The position numbers and the translations under genes were made by a program. From an uncultured virus (IMG/VR IMGVR_UViG_3300036766_001719) (Duplodnaviria; Heunggongvirae; Uroviricota; Caudoviricetes), in the IMG/VR virus record IMGVR_UViG_3300036766_001719: a stretch of 20,000 bases of DNA, one strand, 5' to 3'. Below the pieces are notes generated by a model. The model did not search any database and was not told the origin of the DNA. It worked only from the letters and a program-made list of their open reading frames with translations. Position 1 is the first letter of the stretch. Each line of letters begins with the position of its first letter. Below are positions 924 through 15,030 of this stretch, piece by piece.

Positions 924-1568
924 CTAGATTCTCCTCACTGCCAAATCCTTTAAAGTAATACTCCAACTTGCCTTCCTTGGCGATTTATTCAAACAAAAAT
1001 CCAAAATTTCTTCGGAAGCTACAGCAACCGAAAGCATGATGATGTTTCTGGCCAAGGGATAATCACAAACATCACCTTCAACATCCTTTGGAACTTTGTA
1101 ATTTTCATCCCAAATCACTTCTCCATAATCTTCATAAAGACCAACATGGAGACAAGGAAGCTTTCTTGCTCTGATTTCATCCTGAATTAACTTCCTAGAT
1201 GCTGAATTATCGAAGGCATCAATAACCAATCCAGAACCCTTCAACAAAGACTTAACATTACTTCCAGTCAATTCTTTGTTACAATCATCAACTTCGACGC
1301 CAACATCACGGAAAACCTTATTTTTGAGTGCTGCAACCTTTAATGCTCCAACATCCTTTTCACCATAAACTTGTGTGTTTAGATTCTGAATTTCTACACG
1401 ATCCTTATCAATAACTCTCAACTTACTGAACCCTTGGCGAACAAGATTATCAGTAAGATTACTACCTAAAGCACCAACACCACAAATAGTAATATTAAAA
1501 GTCCCCAACTTGGCAATTAAGTCCTTGCCACGGTAGATTTCCTCATGATGGAACTTTGAATTAGCCAT
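924..1568 (-). CDS. ThiF/MoeB/E1-like ubiquitin-activating (adenylating) enzyme
   Basis: GVGALG nucleotide-binding loop, DKDRVEIQNLNTQ, DAFDN..SR, candidate catalytic Cys in DVCDYP. Start moved to ATG 1568 (MANSK), preceded by AAAGGAAAG. Confidence 0.9.
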   Translation of the reverse strand: MANSKFHHEEIYRGKDLIAKLGTFNITICGVGALGSNLTDNLVRQGFSKLRVIDKDRVEIQNLNTQVYGEKDVGALKVAALKNKVFRDVGVEVDDCNKELTGSNVKSLLKGSGLVIDAFDNSASRKLIQDEIRARKLPCLHVGLYEDYGEVIWDENYKVPKDVEGDVCDYPLARNIIMLSVAVASEEILDFCLNKSPRKASWSITLKDLAVRRI

Positions 1569-1569
1569 A

Positions 1570-2133
1570 TTACTTTCCTTTATTCTTATAAATGGCTTCA
1601 CACCACTCTACCAATTCTTTTTCTGTTAATGTTCTTTTCATCCAATTAACGACTTTGTGAACCCATTGAACATTGTCAAAAACATATCCTTTAGAGTTGT
1701 CTATTCTATCTAAAGATGCAGTTTGTCTCTTAGGATTCTTAATATACCTTCGCTCAAACCTTAGCGGCACTCCAGAAATTGCACATTTCCCATCTTGTTT
1801 AAGAAACAAATCCCAAACTTCTTCAATAGAAACATCTAATGTTTTATTTCTTTTCAAAGCACCATGCTTAAAATGACTCCAATAAGCACCACTTATCTCT
1901 CCGCATCCACGCCAATTATCTGCTGGCCCTCTGCACTTACCACAACTTTTAGTATTTTTACTAGTTAACGATCTTCCTATTATATCTTTTATATTGCCAC
2001 ATTCACATTGACACGTCCATAATGATAAACCGCCTTTCTTATCTGATTCCGCAAGCACTTTTAATTTTCCAAACTCTCTCCCTACAAGTTCTAACTTATT
2101 CCGAGCCTTTTTCATATAACTCCTTGAGTACAT
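1570..2133 (-). mobile_element. Free-standing HNH-type homing endonuclease
   Basis: N-terminal GREFGKLKVL..WTCQCECG..KSCG module; C-terminal SLDRIDNSKGYVFDNVQWVHKVVNWMK. Confidence 0.82.
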
Positions 2134-3484: not shown

Positions 3485-5830
<2,346 letters not shown>

Positions 5831-5880
5831 ACTCTAGCCTAACACAACATTAAATTAATTACTATCCCTAAATCAAAAAA

Positions 5881-5949
5881 TCCGTCTTAGTTTGGAAAGC
5901 TTTTTACCATTTGCAACAATGTTTGTAAGCTTTCCGTATCGGAGACGGA
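5881..5949 (-). ncRNA. Y-like RNA A (minimal, open-ended stem)
   Basis: UCCGUCU-CCGAUAC-GGAAAGCU-UACAAAC...AGCUUUCC-AAACUA-AGACGGA. Confidence 0.75.
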
Positions 5950-5982
5950 TGTATCGGTGTTGCCATTTAAGGCAACTCTATA

Positions 5983-6102
5983 TGGCGGGCGAGGCAAGAT
6001 TTTACTTGCATACTTCAGTTTTACGGACTGATGCTTGTATGTTTCTAAAGTAGGGAACACTTGCATGTTCTAGTCTTAAAAACTGGTTTCAGCTACTCGC
6101 CC
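5983..6102 (-). ncRNA. tRNA-like RNA B (GUA anticodon, CCA encoded) with a Y-like stem inserted in the D loop
   Basis: GGGCGAG/CUCGCCC-GCCA acceptor, UCAGU-CCGUAAA-ACUGA arm, degenerate T loop; insert ACUA-GAAC...GUUC-CCUA...ACAUACA. Confidence 0.72.
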
Positions 6103-6669
6103 ATAATGTTCTTTTCTATGGCAATTCCCGCACAACAAAATACACTTCATGATCTCTTCTAAAATCACCTTAATAGAACACTTTTTATGACAAAGGTTTC
6201 CAATTACATCTCTTTTGTCTTTAATGTGGTGAAATTGCAAACATTCTGTATCTTTTAGAGCACAAACCGCACAACTACTCATAGACTTATAATCCCATAC
6301 AAACGCTATGTTTCTATTTACTCTTGGGTTTAAGTTAACGTAATTATCATCTTTCTTGTGAAATTTTAAATGGCAATTTACACACAGCAAATCGCATTTA
6401 TTTATTTCCTCTAGAACTATAGCGTGACTAAATCTAGTAATGCCATCGGCTATCTCAAATAACTTTTCCTCTGGATTTCTGTGATGAAACTCCAAGCATA
6501 TTACTTCTTTCTCTCCACATTTGATGCAATAACCTTTACTTTTTAAATCGTTAATTAACGACTTAAAATTTTTTCTACTCCTACTTGCTCTCTCTCGAAA
6601 GCTTTCTTTGTTGTTTGAATAATAAGAGGCTCTCCATCTTACCTCTTCCGCTTTGTCTTTATAAGGCAT
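6076..6669 (-). mobile_element. Tandem (two-domain) HNH homing endonuclease
   Basis: Two CxxC...FHH...CxxLCxNCH repeats; 3' end overlaps the 5' end of RNA B. Confidence 0.85.
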
Positions 6670-6697
6670 AACTTAAAGTAGTTATACCTTATTGATT

Positions 6698-6768
6698 TAA
6701 CCGTCCAAGTTAAAAAAGCTGTTATAAACACCACTTGTTTGTAAGCTTTTTAGGTGCGGGACGGATTA
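6698..6768 (-). ncRNA. Y-like RNA C (minimal)
   Basis: CCGUCC-CGCACCU-AAAAAGCU-UACAAAC...AGCUUUUU-UAACUU-GGACGG. Confidence 0.75.
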
Positions 6769-6769
6769 G

Positions 6770-6842
6770 TGGCAGCGATAGGATTTGAACCTATGATCTC
6801 AACGTTATGAGCGTTGCGAGATAACCACTTCTCTACGCTGCT
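6770..6842 (-). tRNA. tRNA-Met(CAU), initiator-like
   Basis: Cloverleaf with CAACG-CUCAUAA-CGUUG and T loop UUCAAAU. A1:C72 mismatch and A11:U24 are initiator traits, but the three consecutive G:C anticodon-stem pairs are missing. Confidence 0.88.
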
Positions 6843-6860
6843 ACACTTAAAAACCTCATT

Positions 6861-6981
6861 TCGTCCAAGTTTTGAAAACTGTTTGGAAAACAATACTGGA
6901 TTTGAACCAGTACAGCAACTTGTTAAGAGTCGTGACCTACCATTGGTCAAATTGTTTGTAAGTTCTCAACATTGGGGACGA
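6861..6981 (-). ncRNA. Y-like RNA D carrying a complete tRNA cloverleaf (UAA anticodon, internal CCA)
   Basis: UCGUCC-CCAAUG-UUGAGAACU-UAC-[AAACAAU, GACC/GGUC, CGACU-CUUAACA-AGUUG, ACUGG-UUCAAAU-CCAGU, AUUGUUU-UCCA]-AAC-AGUUUUCAA-AACUU-GGACGA. Confidence 0.8.
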
Positions 6982-7001
6982 AACAAAGCTTTCTTACAAT
7001 T

Positions 7002-7229
7002 TCAACCGAAGACCGCATCAGGTCGCAACGTCAACTCGCCCGTTGCCTCATTACGGTCAATAGCAAAGTTTCTAAGCTTTGCCAAAGGAACATTGAGATG
7101 CGTAGCTACGGCGGTACGAATCTGCTCATCCGTAGAGAGCGTTCCAACGTCCAGGTCGTTCAGGGGAATATCCCAACTACGACCTTCATACCGAACGTGA
7201 ATTTGCGGAGCCGTCATCGTGTTTTCCAT
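7002..7229 (-). CDS. Small ubiquitin-like (putative beta-grasp) modifier ending in ...RPDAVFG
   Basis: 75 aa, AGGAGG Shine-Dalgarno, pattern compatible with beta-beta-alpha-beta-beta, terminal Gly, same strand as the E1 and JAB genes. Confidence 0.7.
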   Translation of the reverse strand: MENTMTAPQIHVRYEGRSWDIPLNDLDVGTLSTDEQIRTAVATHLNVPLAKLRNFAIDRNEATGELTLRPDAVFG

Positions 7230-7268
7230 CTCAACCTCCTTTTTACTCTTGTTTACTTCATCTACAAC

Positions 7269-7297
7269 ATTATACTCGACATCAACTAGATTGTAAA
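7269..7297 (-). promoter_or_regulatory. Sigma70-type promoter TTTACA-17-TATAAT upstream of the Ubl gene
   Basis: Near-consensus match. Confidence 0.75.
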
Positions 7298-7300
7298 GTA

Positions 7301-7424
7301 AAATTCGTCCAAGTCAATAAAGCTGTCAAGAAACTTTCGGAATTGAACCGAAAACTTCAACCTTGAGGGTTGCGCTCTACCAATTGAGCTAAGTTTGTAA
7401 GCTCTATCCATTGGGGACGAATTT
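7301..7424 (-). ncRNA. Y-like RNA E carrying a tRNA-like cloverleaf with a short acceptor stem
   Basis: 10-bp AAAUUCGUCC/GGACGAAUUU, AUAGAGCU-UAC-AAACU/AGUUU, D arm GCUC-AAUUGGUA-GAGC, CAACC-CUCAA-GGUUG, UUCGG-UUCAAUU-CCGAA. Confidence 0.8.
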
Positions 7425-7426
7425 AG

Positions 7427-7561
7427 TGGGGGAGCCTGGATTTGAACCAGGACTCTTTAGCTCCGAAGGCTAACGTCTTTGCCGTATGTAAGTTGAAAAT
7501 GTCGGGAACAATTTCTTGTTCAAGTCTCAACAACTGACAGTCTTAATTAGACTACTCCCCC
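7427..7561 (-). ncRNA. tRNA-Arg(UCG)-like RNA F with a Y-like stem inserted in the D loop
   Basis: GGGGGAG/CUCCCCC, GUCU/AGAC D stem, UUAGC-CUUCGGA-GCUAA, CCUGG-UUCAAAU-CCAGG; insert ACUU-GAACAA-GAAA-UUGUUC-CCGA...CAACU-UACAUAC. Confidence 0.8.
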
Positions 7562-7591
7562 ATATATCAAACTAACTAACATTCTTTTTAA

Positions 7592-7693
7592 CTGCTGTCA
7601 AACTTTCTCATTTATAGCCCTTTCGACTTTTTAAAGTCATCGTTTGTAGGCTATTAAAGTGGAGACGCTTTCGCATCTAAGTTTTAACAGCAG
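7592..7693 (-). ncRNA. Y-like RNA G (GAAA-capped stem, two alternative folds)
   Basis: GCUGUUAAA-ACUU-AGAUGC-GAAA-GCGUCU-CCAC-UUUAAUAGC-CC-UACAAAC. Confidence 0.65.
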
Positions 7694-7726
7694 ACGGACC
7701 AAACCTTTAAGAAATTCTTCTGCTAA

Positions 7727-7780
7727 GTTTGTACGCTGCACATCTAGGGGACGCTTTCGCATCCAAGTTTCAGCAGCAGT
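7727..7780 (-). ncRNA. Y-like element H (GAAA-capped stem; may extend over 7689-7806)
   Basis: GCUGC-UGAA-ACUU-GGAUGC-GAAA-GCGUCC-CCUAGAUGU-GCAGC-GUACAAAC. Confidence 0.65.
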
Positions 7781-7818
7781 GCTTACCGTTAGGTAAAGCC
7801 TCTGCTACGTCAACCATA

Positions 7819-7885
7819 GTCCAATTTCCGCATGTTTAAATTCCTCTTAGCTTTCTTTAGTTTGTAAGCTATAAAGGTTGGGGAC
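7819..7885 (-). ncRNA. Y-like RNA I (divergent 3' strand)
   Basis: GUCC-CCAACCUUUA-UAGCU-UACAAAC...AGCUA-AGAGG...AAUU-GGAC. Confidence 0.55.
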
Positions 7886-7975
7886 AAGTAGTAGGACCGC
7901 CCCTACGTTATCCGAGTTTTCACAGCGGGTCGCAACTCATTAATCTTTTTCTAGACTTAACTCATTGCTTCTATC

Positions 7976-8003
7976 ATTCTACTTCGTTTCGGTCAATTGT
8001 AAA
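7976..8003 (-). promoter_or_regulatory. Putative sigma70 promoter TTTACA-16-TAGAAT
   Basis: Near-consensus match upstream of RNAs I/H/G/F/E. Confidence 0.55.
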
Positions 8004-8028
8004 CTAAATTTTCCGAAAAAATAAAAAA

Positions 8029-8359
8029 CACTGTTTTAGTTTCCAGAGCGAAAGGACATATTACTATGGCCGTGCGTGATGTACAGATATTACTCTGTAC
8101 ACTCGTTTACACGCAAGTCAATCGGCCCTGGCTTCCGCCAGTGGGTTGATATTTAAATCAACCCTCGACCACCTTTTCAGGCTCCCGTAAGAGACTGACC
8201 GTGCAATTGCGGAAAAGGTTCACACCTTACATCCGATATTTTTTATCAGATGCTCCTTGGGATGTTCAACTATGCTTTGTCGGCATAGTCATTAAACCAA
8301 GGAAACTCGCTACCTTAGGACCGGCAGTTGTTTGTAAGCTCCAAAGGTCGGAAACAGTG
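8029..8359 (-). ncRNA. Large (~330 nt) multi-hairpin RNA J enclosed by a Y-like stem
   Basis: CACUGUUU-CCGAC..GGAGC-UUACAAAC ... GCUCU-GGAAACUA-AAACAGUG followed by U6; many internal hairpins. Confidence 0.72.
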
Positions 8360-8362
8360 CAG

Positions 8363-8485
8363 CGGCGTTTGAAGGATTCGAACCTTCTCAAAAGCTTATT
8401 AGGCTTTCTCATTCCAATTGTTTGTAAGCTTAAAAGATGGGGAACAATTTCTTGTTCAAGTTTATCAAGCCACTTTTAAACGCCG
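8363..8485 (-). ncRNA. tRNA-like RNA K (AAU anticodon) with the D arm replaced by a Y-like stem
   Basis: CGGCGUUU/AAACGCCG, AAAGC-CUAAUAA-GCUUU, GAAGG-UUCGAAU-CCUUC; 22-nt core identical to F and M. Confidence 0.78.
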
Positions 8486-8492
8486 TAAATTA

Positions 8493-8635
8493 AAACCGTC
8501 TTAGTTGAAAAAACTATTCTTAACGTGTCACTTTAAAAGAGTGATGCCTTTACCATTAGGCTACAAATTCTTACGAACTTGACGGGATTCGAACCCGCAT
8601 ATGTGTATGTAAGTTCTATCTGTTGGAGACGGTTT
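8493..8635 (-). ncRNA. Y-like RNA L carrying a circularly permuted tRNA-Lys(UUU)-like domain
   Basis: Order inside the Y stem: T arm GCGGG-UUCGAAU-CCCGU, acceptor CAAGUUC-GUAA-GAAUUUG, D arm GCCU-AAUGGUAA-AGGC, anticodon arm UCACU-CUUUUAA-AGUGA. Confidence 0.82.
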
Positions 8636-8637
8636 AG

Positions 8638-8756
8638 TGGATGACCTTGGAATCGAACCAAGAAGAAATTTAAAAATTTCTTTGCCAGTTTGTAAGCTCA
8701 AAAAGTTGGGAACAATTTCTTGTTCAAGTTATACAAGCTAACTTTTTAAGTCACCC
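8638..8756 (-). ncRNA. tRNA-like RNA M with the D arm replaced by a Y-like stem and a degenerate AU-rich anticodon arm
   Basis: GGGUGAC/GUCAUCC, CUUGG-UUCGAUU-CCAAG; 22-nt core identical to F and K; UACAAAC present. Confidence 0.75.
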
Positions 8757-8797
8757 ATTTAATTGTAAAAGATCAACTTCATTCATTCGACTTTTTA

Positions 8798-8825
8798 ATT
8801 ATACTTGATATACGAGTGTTGTCAA
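8798..8825 (-). promoter_or_regulatory. Sigma70 promoter TTGACA-16-TATAAT at the head of the RNA array
   Basis: Perfect -35 and -10 hexamers. Confidence 0.82.
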
Positions 8826-13906: not shown

Positions 13907-14575
13907 ATGACTAAAAAATCACAAAATCACGGCTCACAATCTTACCATAATAAAAAAGGCTTTCATTTAGAGTTTAAAAATGCTAATCAAAAAATAGCTT
14001 GGTCTGAATTTGAACAAAACGACATCCTATTTATGACAGGACCAGCAGGTGTGGGGAAGTCTTACCTAGCTGCCGCTTTTGCTATTAGCGAGATACTTAA
14101 TAAAAACAAAAAAAAGATAATATTAACAAGACCCATATTAGAGGCAGGAGAATCTTTGGGTTTTTTGCCAGGAACCTTTGAAGAAAAAGTTAACCCTTAT
14201 ATGACTCCTCTTTATGACTCAATAGATAAAATCCTTGGAACATATGGCCCAGAACGAGAAAAAATAGATCAAGCCATAGAAATAGCCCCCATTGCTTATT
14301 TGCGTGGAAGAACTTTAGACAATGCAGTTTGTATTCTTGATGAAGCTCAAAACTGTACCCGCATACAATTAAAACTATTTTTAACTAGACTAGGCGAGAA
14401 CTCAAAGATGATTATTACCGCTGATCCAAAACAATCAGATTTAAAAGGCGAAGTACAATTAACAGAAATTCTTAATAAAATAAAAACAATCCCTGGAATT
14501 GCAACAATAGATTTCAAAGAATCTTCGATTGTTAGACATCCCCTTGTCGCTAAAATATTAGAAAGATTAGAGTAA
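13907..14575 (+). CDS. phoH: PhoH-family ATPase
   Basis: GPAGVGKS, LGFLPG, YLRGRTL, ILDEAQN. Confidence 0.95.
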   Translation: MTKKSQNHGSQSYHNKKGFHLEFKNANQKIAWSEFEQNDILFMTGPAGVGKSYLAAAFAISEILNKNKKKIILTRPILEAGESLGFLPGTFEEKVNPYMTPLYDSIDKILGTYGPEREKIDQAIEIAPIAYLRGRTLDNAVCILDEAQNCTRIQLKLFLTRLGENSKMIITADPKQSDLKGEVQLTEILNKIKTIPGIATIDFKESSIVRHPLVAKILERLE

Positions 14576-14583
14576 ATAATTTA

Positions 14584-15030
14584 ATGAACAGCTTTAAGTT
14601 ATTTTTTGAAGCCAGCGAAGAAGAAAAAAACGTAAAAGACACTCTAAACAAACTTCCTAAGTCACATGCTGCTTTAATAAAAAATTATAAATTTAAATGG
14701 CAAAAAGGGAATTGTTTAGATGGAGACAATAATCATGTTGGAGTAATTAATCCTAAAGCAAAAACCATTACAATAGCAGCTTCCTATAACTTTGGCAGAG
14801 AACATATAATATTACATGAATTGGCGCATAAAGTTTGGGAAACATTCATCATAAATGATTCAAAATTATTAAAAAAATGGAATAAAATAGTAAAAACCAC
14901 TAAAAATCGACCTAAGCAAAACAAAGAAGAACTTTTCTGTCATGCTTATAGCATTTACTATTGCAATAACAAAGTTGAAAAATTCAACTATCCAGAGTGG
15001 ATGCAATTTATTAAAAATTTATCTACGTAA
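14584..15030 (+). CDS. Putative zincin metallopeptidase
   Basis: ILHELAH (HExxH) with downstream EELFC. Confidence 0.65.
   Translation: MNSFKLFFEASEEEKNVKDTLNKLPKSHAALIKNYKFKWQKGNCLDGDNNHVGVINPKAKTITIAASYNFGREHIILHELAHKVWETFIINDSKLLKKWNKIVKTTKNRPKQNKEELFCHAYSIYYCNNKVEKFNYPEWMQFIKNLST

Follow-up and report, generated by a model that had tools for sequence, protein, structure and literature searches.

Whole tRNA cloverleaves carried by the acceptor end on a conserved Y-RNA-like stem upstream of a predicted Ro60 gene in huge phages

INTRODUCTION

The known Y RNAs of bacteria and phages are encoded upstream of Ro60/Rsr genes, on the same strand and within about 4 kb, and those of the YrlA class combine a terminal Ro-binding stem with a tRNA-mimicking domain (PMC4201824). 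The tRNA-like domain of YrlA is circularly permuted (T arm, capped acceptor, D arm), with the stem at the position of the anticodon stem, a sealed acceptor loop, no anticodon loop, and no CCA (bioRxiv 10.1101/312249). In Mycobacterium smegmatis, YrlA is cut by RNase P in vivo, and both halves stay bound to Rsr (PMC4201824). Among phages, the Ro60 protein of Thermus phage phiLo binds Y-like RNAs encoded upstream of its gene and forms complexes with the host PNPase (PMC12135203). The gp130 protein of phage Bas63 counters the Ppl defence system, and the authors of that study guess that some of the neighbouring "tRNA" genes are Y RNAs (preprint PMC11482910). The present analysis concerns a 20,000-nucleotide (nt) stretch of DNA, referred to below as the window, from an uncultured virus (IMG/VR record IMGVR_UViG_3300036766_001719). 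The window is a fragment of a huge phage, and all of its tRNA-type elements lie on the minus strand. Two of them, units D and E, are whole cloverleaves enclosed through the acceptor end by a conserved stem, and they are located about 1.0 kb (D) and 1.5 kb (E) upstream of a predicted Ro60 gene on the same strand.

To our knowledge, the Y RNAs of bacteria and phages mimic tRNA always without an anticodon loop and with the acceptor end sealed. The units described here are new in that a whole cloverleaf with a canonical, fast-changing anticodon loop, and in D with an internal CCA, is mounted in reverse on an apparently Ro60-binding stem, in at least 18 huge-phage contigs.

RESULTS AND DISCUSSION

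Structure of units D and E

The first-pass annotation of this DNA, made from the letters alone, had described D as a full cloverleaf with an internal CCA inside a Y stem and E as a cloverleaf with a 5-bp acceptor stem and a shortened CUCAA loop, the AAAC of a conserved motif starting the acceptor stem in both. Our reading of the sequence agrees with this anatomy. Both cloverleaves were called by ARAGORN and matched the Rfam tRNA family (RF00005; gathering threshold, 29 bits) with 51.9 bits (D) and 51.2 bits (E). The conserved CUUACAAAC motif contributes its AAAC to the 5' strand of the acceptor stem in D and E alike; the acceptor end runs into the conserved stem, leaving the elbow and the anticodon arm free. 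The shared 5' flank has the order UUCGUCC-CC-AA-(2 to 3 nt)-upper helix-UAC-AAAC, and the shared 3' flank has the order upper helix-(3 to 4 nt)-UU-GGACGAA. The 5' and 3' ends of the units pair into a conserved bulged stem, as is expected of a Y RNA. Failure of this stem to form had been named in advance as one of two observations that would count against the proposal. In single-sequence folding scored as z against 200 shuffles, the stem formed in D (z = -3.84) and in E (z = -4.22), and none of the 200 shuffles equalled either value.

In D, the enclosing stem consists of a 7-bp lower helix, the CC bulge, two A:U pairs, and an upper helix of 9 bp. Both helices are present in the minimum-energy fold, with pair probabilities of ≥0.98. 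The 7-nt anticodon loop is CUUAACA (6921-6927), with the anticodon UAA at 6923-6925, U33, and a C at position 37. The acceptor stem has 7 bp (AAACAAU/AUUGUUU), the discriminator is a U (U73), and the variable region is 4 nt long. The encoded CCA (6884-6886) falls in an internal loop that precedes the upper-helix 3' strand. The acceptor stem is A-U-rich and weak in the energy model (pair probability, 0.22 to 0.25), and the free energy of the full design is -28.1 kcal/mol, compared with -33.5 kcal/mol for the minimum-energy fold. In E, the minimum-energy fold favours an extended T hairpin over the acceptor stem, which consists of five contiguous pairs followed by a C-C mismatch and one more pair. 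The anticodon loop of E contains 5 nt (CUCAA, 7363-7367) and so lacks the 7-nt length expected of a decoding tRNA.

Conservation and covariation of the enclosing stem

A covariance model of the whole design, R1 (124 positions and 39 pairs), was built from 17 units and searched over 18 sources, namely, the window, its relative L001, and 16 loci found through the Ro60 protein. In total, 29 full-length units scoring 55 to 132 bits were retrieved, with at least one in each of the 18 sources, including loci in which Ro60 is only 41% to 48% identical to that of the window. Ordinary tRNAs of the same loci match only R1 positions ~26 to 98, which correspond to the cloverleaf. As a negative control, the model was searched over 57 unrelated viral loci (161 kb), each with a single match to a 14-base DNA pattern; one R1 match was found, and 56 of the 57 loci were rejected as chance matches of the pattern. 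In addition, four tRNA regions of Bacillus phage G and Streptomyces phage Evy, both of which carry Ro-like genes, were folded and showed no significant enclosing stem (z from -0.05 to -1.6).

In the 29-row alignment fitted to R1, 91.8% of the cells are paired, and changes on both sides are seen in 37 of the 39 pairs. The covariation score of 0.677 falls to 0.08 to 0.12 when the partners are slid and was reached by none of 500 shuffles. The lower helix is 98% paired with covariation at 7/7 pairs and a conserved CC bulge, and the upper helix is 86.6% paired with covariation at 9/9 pairs, so that all 16 pairs of the two main enclosing helices covary. Both enclosing helices, together with the D, anticodon, and T arms, were also predicted by RNAalifold from the 17 seed units, aligned independently with MAFFT. 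The covariation and this recovery indicate that the enclosing stem is a selected RNA structure and not a chance flank. The coordinates of the units and of the genes discussed below are given in Table 1.

Table 1. Positions of the RNA units, their parts, and associated features in the window
Feature	Position	Strand	Basis
Unit D, whole Y-stem and cloverleaf module, 123 nt	6860-6982	minus	R1 123.1 bits, full-length
D lower helix, 5' strand UUCGUCC, followed by CC bulge (6974-6975) and AA (6972-6973)	6976-6982	minus	Sequence
D upper helix, 5' strand UUGAGAACU, followed by unpaired UAC of the CUUACAAAC motif	6961-6969	minus	Covariation
D cloverleaf, short-armed (class I), 74 nt, anticodon UAA	6884-6957	minus	ARAGORN; Rfam tRNA 51.9 bits
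D upper helix, 3' strand AGUUUUCAA	6872-6880	minus	Fold and covariation
D lower helix, 3' strand GGACGAA, within conserved ACUUGGAC	6860-6866	minus	Pair probability ≥0.98
Unit E, whole Y-stem and cloverleaf module, 118 nt	7304-7421	minus	R1 104.5 bits, full-length
E stem, 5' half: lower helix 7415-7421, CC bulge, upper helix 7400-7407	7400-7421	minus	Sequence and covariation
E cloverleaf, 71 nt, without CCA	7328-7398	minus	ARAGORN; Rfam tRNA 51.2 bits
E stem, 3' half: upper helix 7317-7324, lower helix 7304-7310	7304-7324	minus	Sequence and covariation
Unit C, stem module with small AAAC:GUUU-type hairpin, without cloverleaf	6700-6765	minus	Sequence, fold, R1 42 bits
Predicted Ro60/Rsr orthologue, 510-aa ORF, helical-repeat ring and vWA domain	4290-5822	minus	AF2, Foldseek, profiles
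Conserved 75-aa ORF between E and D	7002-7229	minus	Upstream of Ro60 in 15/17 related loci
Promoter-like site, TTTACA-17 nt-TATAAT, 11/12 matches	7269-7297	minus	Consensus scan, pattern match only
Promoter-like site, perfect consensus, head of array	8825-8798	minus	Pattern match only

The stem module and its array

The enclosing stem is present at least 12 times in the window. A loose pattern of its 5' half gave 12 matches between 5946 and 8713, all on the minus strand, and the core TTTGTAAGC motif occurs 21 times, compared with 8.9 expected. In the relative L001, 14 to 15 copies of the module precede the Ro60 gene within 4 kb (17 matches versus 2.1 expected). In five huge-phage records, the 39 pattern matches are all on one strand, and a control pattern matched 0 to 1 times per strand. 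The module occurs in two forms. The open form, as in units C, D, and E, ends at the base of the lower helix. In the capped form, a GAAA tetraloop closes the lower helix (GGAUGC-GAAA-GCGUCC or GAACAA-GAAA-UUGUUC), and the open end takes the place of the D arm or the anticodon arm in other tRNA-like RNAs. Cargo-free units of 66 to 77 nt, closed by the same small AAAC:GUUU helix as unit C, are also present. Since cargo-free units exist, the stem is a functional element in its own right and not merely the leader and trailer of a tRNA.

The search for further copies was less productive elsewhere. Megablast of the array against the phage collection gave no match. Among the at least 116 loci listed in a DNA-pattern scan of metagenome contigs, one had two loose motif copies and none was useful. 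Among the at least 120 loci listed in a scan of genome contigs, the five candidates picked had no R1 match; no host or cellular copy was identified among the genome-contig matches listed, a result that says nothing about absence.

Other RNAs of the array carry different cargo on the same module. The unit at ~8040-8362 (minus strand) is a large open unit with an insert of ~270 nt, which begins with a stretch of 26 to 32 nt that is 87% to 93% identical to Escherichia coli 23S rRNA. This stretch matches seven places per genome, all annotated as 23S rRNA. Similar inserts are found in L001 (8741-9060) and L193 (4422-4750), and the unit has no match to an Rfam family. This unit may use the shared scaffold to present a mimic of an rRNA fragment.

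The RNAs at 7427-7572, 8363-8480, and 8640-8790 (minus strand), read by eye, are tRNA-like with free acceptor ends, and the capped module replaces the anticodon arm in the first and the D arm in the other two. They gave only weak Rfam tRNA matches (25.4 and 18.5 bits). The open stem unit at 8495-8633 (minus strand) carries a circularly permuted tRNA mimic in the order T arm, GUAA-capped acceptor stem, D arm, and full anticodon arm with UUU, which is the known YrlA-like order with an anticodon hairpin added. Its match to the YrlA family RF02553 (25.5 bits at 8546-8599) is below the Rfam gathering score of 69 bits. Seven such permuted units were found across the loci.

The phage Ro60 gene

The product of the 510-amino-acid (aa) open reading frame (ORF) downstream of the array is, on its modelled structure, a Ro60 orthologue. 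The AlphaFold2 (AF2) model has a mean confidence (pLDDT) of 81.1, and the first 12 Foldseek ranks are all Ro60/Rsr structures matched over the full length (E values, 1.8e-10 to 1.5e-7; TM scores, 0.53 to 0.64). A sequence search of the PDB matched the TROVE protein of Thermus phage phiLo (E = 1.2e-5; structures 9KOP and 9L5Y), a profile of 19 homologues matched human Ro60 (E = 6.9e-5), and the ORF also matched phrog_850, annotated as an RNA-binding protein (2.9e-8). An NCBIfam search of the protein gave nothing useful. Judging from the alignment with homologues, the true start is probably the ATG near 5786.

More than 2,700 metagenomic homologues of this protein were found. The sole close relative in the phage collection is encoded by a 595-kb uncultured phage (65% identity). 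The related loci were obtained by an alignment-based scan of viral contigs with the Ro60 protein, whereas a scan with the single protein confirmed no relative. All six multi-copy viral contigs found from the DNA pattern alone were also recovered through Ro60. In most of the related loci, too, the units are placed upstream of Ro60 on the same strand, except that those of L201 are downstream of it and that of L203 is on the opposite strand. The repeated occurrence of the stem module upstream of a phage Ro60 gene suggests that D and E are best read as Y-RNA-like partners of Ro60.

A capped copy of the lower stem (AACUUGGAUGCGAAAGCGUCCC) also stands immediately ahead of the ribosome-binding site of the Ro60 gene, in its 5' leader (~5810-5832, minus strand). 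It is found at the same place in L001, L193, and L207 and is absent from the other 15 related loci. This capped stem may be a site for autoregulation by Ro60.

Comparison of the cloverleaves with ordinary tRNAs

The first acceptor pairs of the units are the conserved AAAC:GUUU of the module regardless of the anticodon, and the bodies are short-armed (71 to 77 nt). A long variable arm is characteristic of Leu and Ser tRNAs in bacteria, and bacterial leucyl-tRNA synthetase requires A73. Leu or Ser anticodons are present in 12 of the 26 units with 7-nt loops, compared with 15 of 116 ordinary tRNAs of the same loci, and a UAG, UAA, or UGA anticodon is present in 10 of the 26, compared with 7 of 116. 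The body of D does not fit its UAA anticodon either in class or in identity elements (74 nt, 4-nt variable region, and U73). In addition, the two relatives checked, L195 and L202, also contain long-armed Leu and Ser tRNAs of 83 to 94 nt, and in both of them the enclosed UAG anticodon is duplicated by an ordinary tRNA-Leu(UAG) of 84 to 86 nt.

In other respects, the tRNA-like features are well preserved. Pairing in the anticodon stem is 100%, the letters of the D loop and the T loop are conserved, and 21 of the 26 units have U33. The anticodon loop has 7 nt in 26 of the 29 units and 5 nt in the other 3, E among them. A CCA follows the discriminator in 12 of the 26 units, compared with 26 of 116 ordinary tRNA genes (loose window), and the ordinary tRNA genes of the window's closest relatives almost never encode it. 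The encoded CCA makes most sense if it is needed while internal, by RNase P or another CCA-reading partner.

The anticodon loop is the part that changes most. The 26 units contain 16 different triplets, and the four closest D-type units have the anticodons UAA, UGU, CCA, and UAG. Between L193 and L207, 5 of 7 loop positions differ, compared with 11 of 118 elsewhere (p = 3e-4). A soil metagenome contig covering D has four differences in 112 nt, three of which (6922, 6924, and 6926) lie in the 7-nt loop (p = 6e-4), and in the copy of E from the same soil run a 2-nt insertion (AT) at the loop edge restores a 7-nt loop.

Short-armed genes of a similar kind are found free-standing in other phages. 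Near Ro-like genes, L201 (13099-13175) and L209 (Streptomyces phage Evy; 8707-8782 and 8941-9015) contain "tRNA-Leu" genes of 75 to 77 nt with the anticodon UAG and without a long variable arm. These genes are outside any enclosing stem. Short-armed UAG tRNAs may thus be a wider phage feature.

Proposed function and alternative explanations

Taken together, D and E are, on balance, probably Y-RNA-like, Ro60-tethered tRNA mimics that do not decode and in which the anticodon loop serves as a specificity surface. The array would be transcribed as long precursors, as suggested by promoter-like sites and by the lack of terminator-like sites between the units, and Ro60 would bind the bulged lower stem. 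The cloverleaf would then project from the particle. Its elbow and anticodon loop would be exposed, the acceptor end would be locked in the stem, and any CCA would lie in an internal loop. What such a particle would display is a tRNA mimic that probably takes no part in decoding and owes its specificity to the variable anticodon loop; the RNA may persist in full-length or nicked form. The most likely use would be as a bait or decoy for host factors that read the anticodon loop, for example, tRNA-cutting defence nucleases; a second possibility is that the RNA would bring Ro60 and its exonuclease partners to the tRNA-handling machinery. The first-pass annotation had likewise expected a decoy for anticodon nucleases. 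This expectation stands in part, as the mismatch of tRNA class, the variable loops, and the degenerate tRNA fit of E are consistent with it, but none of them demonstrates a decoy.

Several observations weigh against Ro60-tethered mimicry. Contig G006 (L039/L210), a 58-kb viral contig estimated to be 79% complete, contains a single acceptor-linked unit (14442-14560; 83 bits), with no other unit and no detectable Ro60 gene, which weakens a strict dependence on a phage-encoded Ro60. The Ro60-like ORF has no match to Pfam TROVE and only sub-threshold matches to vWA families. The Ro-binding motif GNCGAAN0-1G of bacterial Y RNAs is absent from the stem of D and E, and in the stem 5' strand, CGUCCCCAA(U/C)G, only GUCC and the bulged C resemble, by eye, the vertebrate GGUCCGA. 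The Fisher p values for the excess of Leu/Ser anticodons (4e-4) and of UAG/UAA/UGA anticodons (7e-5) treat related rows as independent and are thus not true probabilities. Other noncoding parts also differ by ~10% between the window and the soil relative, and the faster change of the loop could reflect relaxed constraint instead of an arms race. D-type units, with a 7-bp acceptor stem, an exact CCA, and 7-nt loops, look fully tRNA competent, so RNase P could cut them. Moreover, 17 of the 26 anticodons begin with U and would read A-ending codons, which also fits a role in codon supply.

The last two points lead to an alternative that we regard as unlikely but substantial, namely, that the units are pre-tRNA cassettes. 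The D-type units would be genuine tRNA genes and the stem a processing or stabilising element, perhaps assisted by Ro60; RNase P and 3' trimming would free a tRNA of ~75 nt to serve codons common in the phage but rare in the host. In addition to the U-first anticodons and the prevalence of 7-nt loops and U33, the Rfam scores of 51 to 52 bits, the 7-bp acceptor with exact discriminator and CCA in D and about 12 other units, and the polycistronic context of D, which sits 17 nt before an ordinary tRNA-Met, are all in keeping with such cassettes, and RNase P is known to cut M. smegmatis YrlA in vivo (PMC4201824). However, the Leu and Ser bodies are short-armed, and L195 and L202 already hold a long-armed tRNA-Leu with the same UAG. 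The first acceptor pairs stay the same whatever the anticodon, and D has U73 instead of A73. The ordinary tRNA genes mostly lack an encoded CCA, so a released tRNA would need none. Finally, E-type units, with 5-nt loops and no CCA, retain the stem, which also occurs free of cargo.

Another explanation, which we consider improbable, is a nicked or caged RNA, in which RNase P cuts at A1 while ~18 bp hold the 25-nt 5' strand on the 3' trailer; a caged tRNA freed by cleavage was the other option given in the first-pass annotation. The product would be a two-piece, Ro60-bound RNA, and its tRNA part would be held back from release or degradation until the stem was opened or cut. RNase P contacts CCA, and the CCA in the internal loop could be read by it. 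The stem is also stable in silico (pair probabilities of ≥0.98), and the halves of M. smegmatis YrlA stay bound to Rsr after RNase P cleavage (PMC4201824). By the reasoning of the same study, however, the weak acceptor stems of E-type units would make poor RNase P substrates (PMC4201824), and this explanation overlaps Ro60-tethered mimicry instead of excluding it. Scarcely credible is the idea of a selfish repeat, small and either mobile or recombining, that picked up tRNA genes and whose stem serves no purpose as RNA: the many copies, circularly permuted forms, variable cargo, and nearby HNH and LAGLIDADG genes would suit it, but every copy is on one strand and near Ro60, copies are retained in loci with Ro60 identity as low as 41%, and the compensatory changes found in the two helices indicate that RNA pairing is under selection.

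If D and E are Ro60-tethered mimics, a bolder and rather doubtful extension is that the phage maintains a library of Ro60-bound "anticodon display" RNAs, unchargeable look-alikes in which the fast-changing loop sets the target. As baits, they would soak up or expose host anticodon-cutting defence nucleases. As guides, they would pair loop to loop with complementary anticodons and hand the tRNAs to Ro60 and an exonuclease; the UAG, UGA, and UAA triplets in 10 of the 26 loops are complementary to the anticodons of the stop-codon suppressor tRNAs of altered-code phages. The 23S rRNA-like cargo on the same scaffold would make the module a general decoy platform. If the units are bound by Ro60, the anticodon loop would be a functional surface of the Ro60 particle, and phage Ro60 would be tied directly to the conflict between phages and bacterial defence over tRNAs. 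With regard to annotation, some "tRNA genes" of huge phages, for example, short Leu and Ser genes, may not be tRNAs.

Transcription and neighbouring genes

The promoter-like site at 7269-7297 is located directly downstream of E and ahead of the 75-aa ORF, D, the tRNA-Met, and unit C, and as a consensus match it would drive these four. Between the units, the only terminator-like matches are the T-arm and D-arm hairpins of D. In two soil metatranscriptome runs from one study, contigs ≥99% identical to the window cover 8055-8342 only, and no contig in those two runs covers D, E, or any other part of 5800-8800.

Phage-type genes of the window include those for PhoH, dUTPase, a sigma factor, DnaJ, and HNH and LAGLIDADG endonucleases. 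The HNH ORF (6076-6669, minus strand) is inserted between two cargo-free stem units, and the LAGLIDADG ORF (3485-4327, plus strand) overlaps the 3' end of the Ro60 gene on the opposite strand. The position of these two ORFs suggests that homing endonuclease genes use the array as a landing site.

The 75-aa ORF between E and D ends in RP(E/Q)AVFG. Its AF2 model (pLDDT, 85) has the order strand-strand-helix-strand-strand, and ubiquitin-like domains ranked top in Foldseek, none significantly (best E = 0.1). Genes of the ThiF/E1-like and JAB-domain types are present in the same window (924-1601 and 2176-2505). Together, these three may form a phage ubiquitin-like system linked to Ro60. A further ORF of 148 aa (14584-15030, plus strand) has an HExxH-type motif and a Pfam ATLF metalloprotease score of 25.4 bits, against a cutoff of 27.4, and probably encodes a small zinc-protease-like phage protein.

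Comparison with known Y RNA systems

The literature covered describes Y-RNA arrays of several units as well as tRNA mimics with permuted arms, but no whole cloverleaf joined to a Y stem through its acceptor end; this coverage did not extend to the supplementary phage YrlA lists of PMC4201824. Two phage loci are similar in gene arrangement. Phage Bas63 encodes the Ro60-like gp130 next to a run of annotated tRNA genes, for which the available part of the preprint describes no RNA structure (PMC11482910). Thermus phage phiLo has a phage Ro60 with Yrl1 and Yrl2 encoded just upstream (PMC12135203; PDB 9KOP and 9L5Y). Its two RNAs are described as stem-bulge-stem RNAs with a CGAA motif, and the available part of that report mentions no tRNA cloverleaf, whereas the window has at least 12 modules and tRNA-type cargo (PMC12135203).

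At the level of RNA structure, Yrn1 of Deinococcus radiodurans can be drawn with T-arm and D-arm features, in the other orientation, and with a possible anticodon arm with a 5-bp stem. It differs in having a 6-nt loop and in lacking a full D arm, a variable arm, and a complete cloverleaf (PMC4201824). The YrlA of M. smegmatis comes closer in having a 7-bp acceptor-like stem and in carrying a CCA while bound to Rsr, which indicates that a Y RNA can carry a tRNA-type acceptor end (PMC4201824). As described there, this CCA is added after cleavage of the capping loop, whereas that of D is encoded, and the acceptor helix of D continues into the Ro-type stem.

The closest class as a whole is YrlA (RF02553), found in Salmonella, many other bacteria, and phages. 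D and E resemble it in being noncoding, in lying upstream of Ro60/Rsr on the same strand, and in combining a terminal, presumably Ro60-binding stem with a tRNA-like domain. They have no match to RF02553. In contrast to YrlA, D and E have the normal order of arms, the stem at the acceptor end, and a complete anticodon arm, and D has an internal CCA. Because of this inverse topology, D and E are not members of YrlA and are best read as a variant of the tRNA-mimicking Y RNAs in which the topology of known YrlA is turned around.

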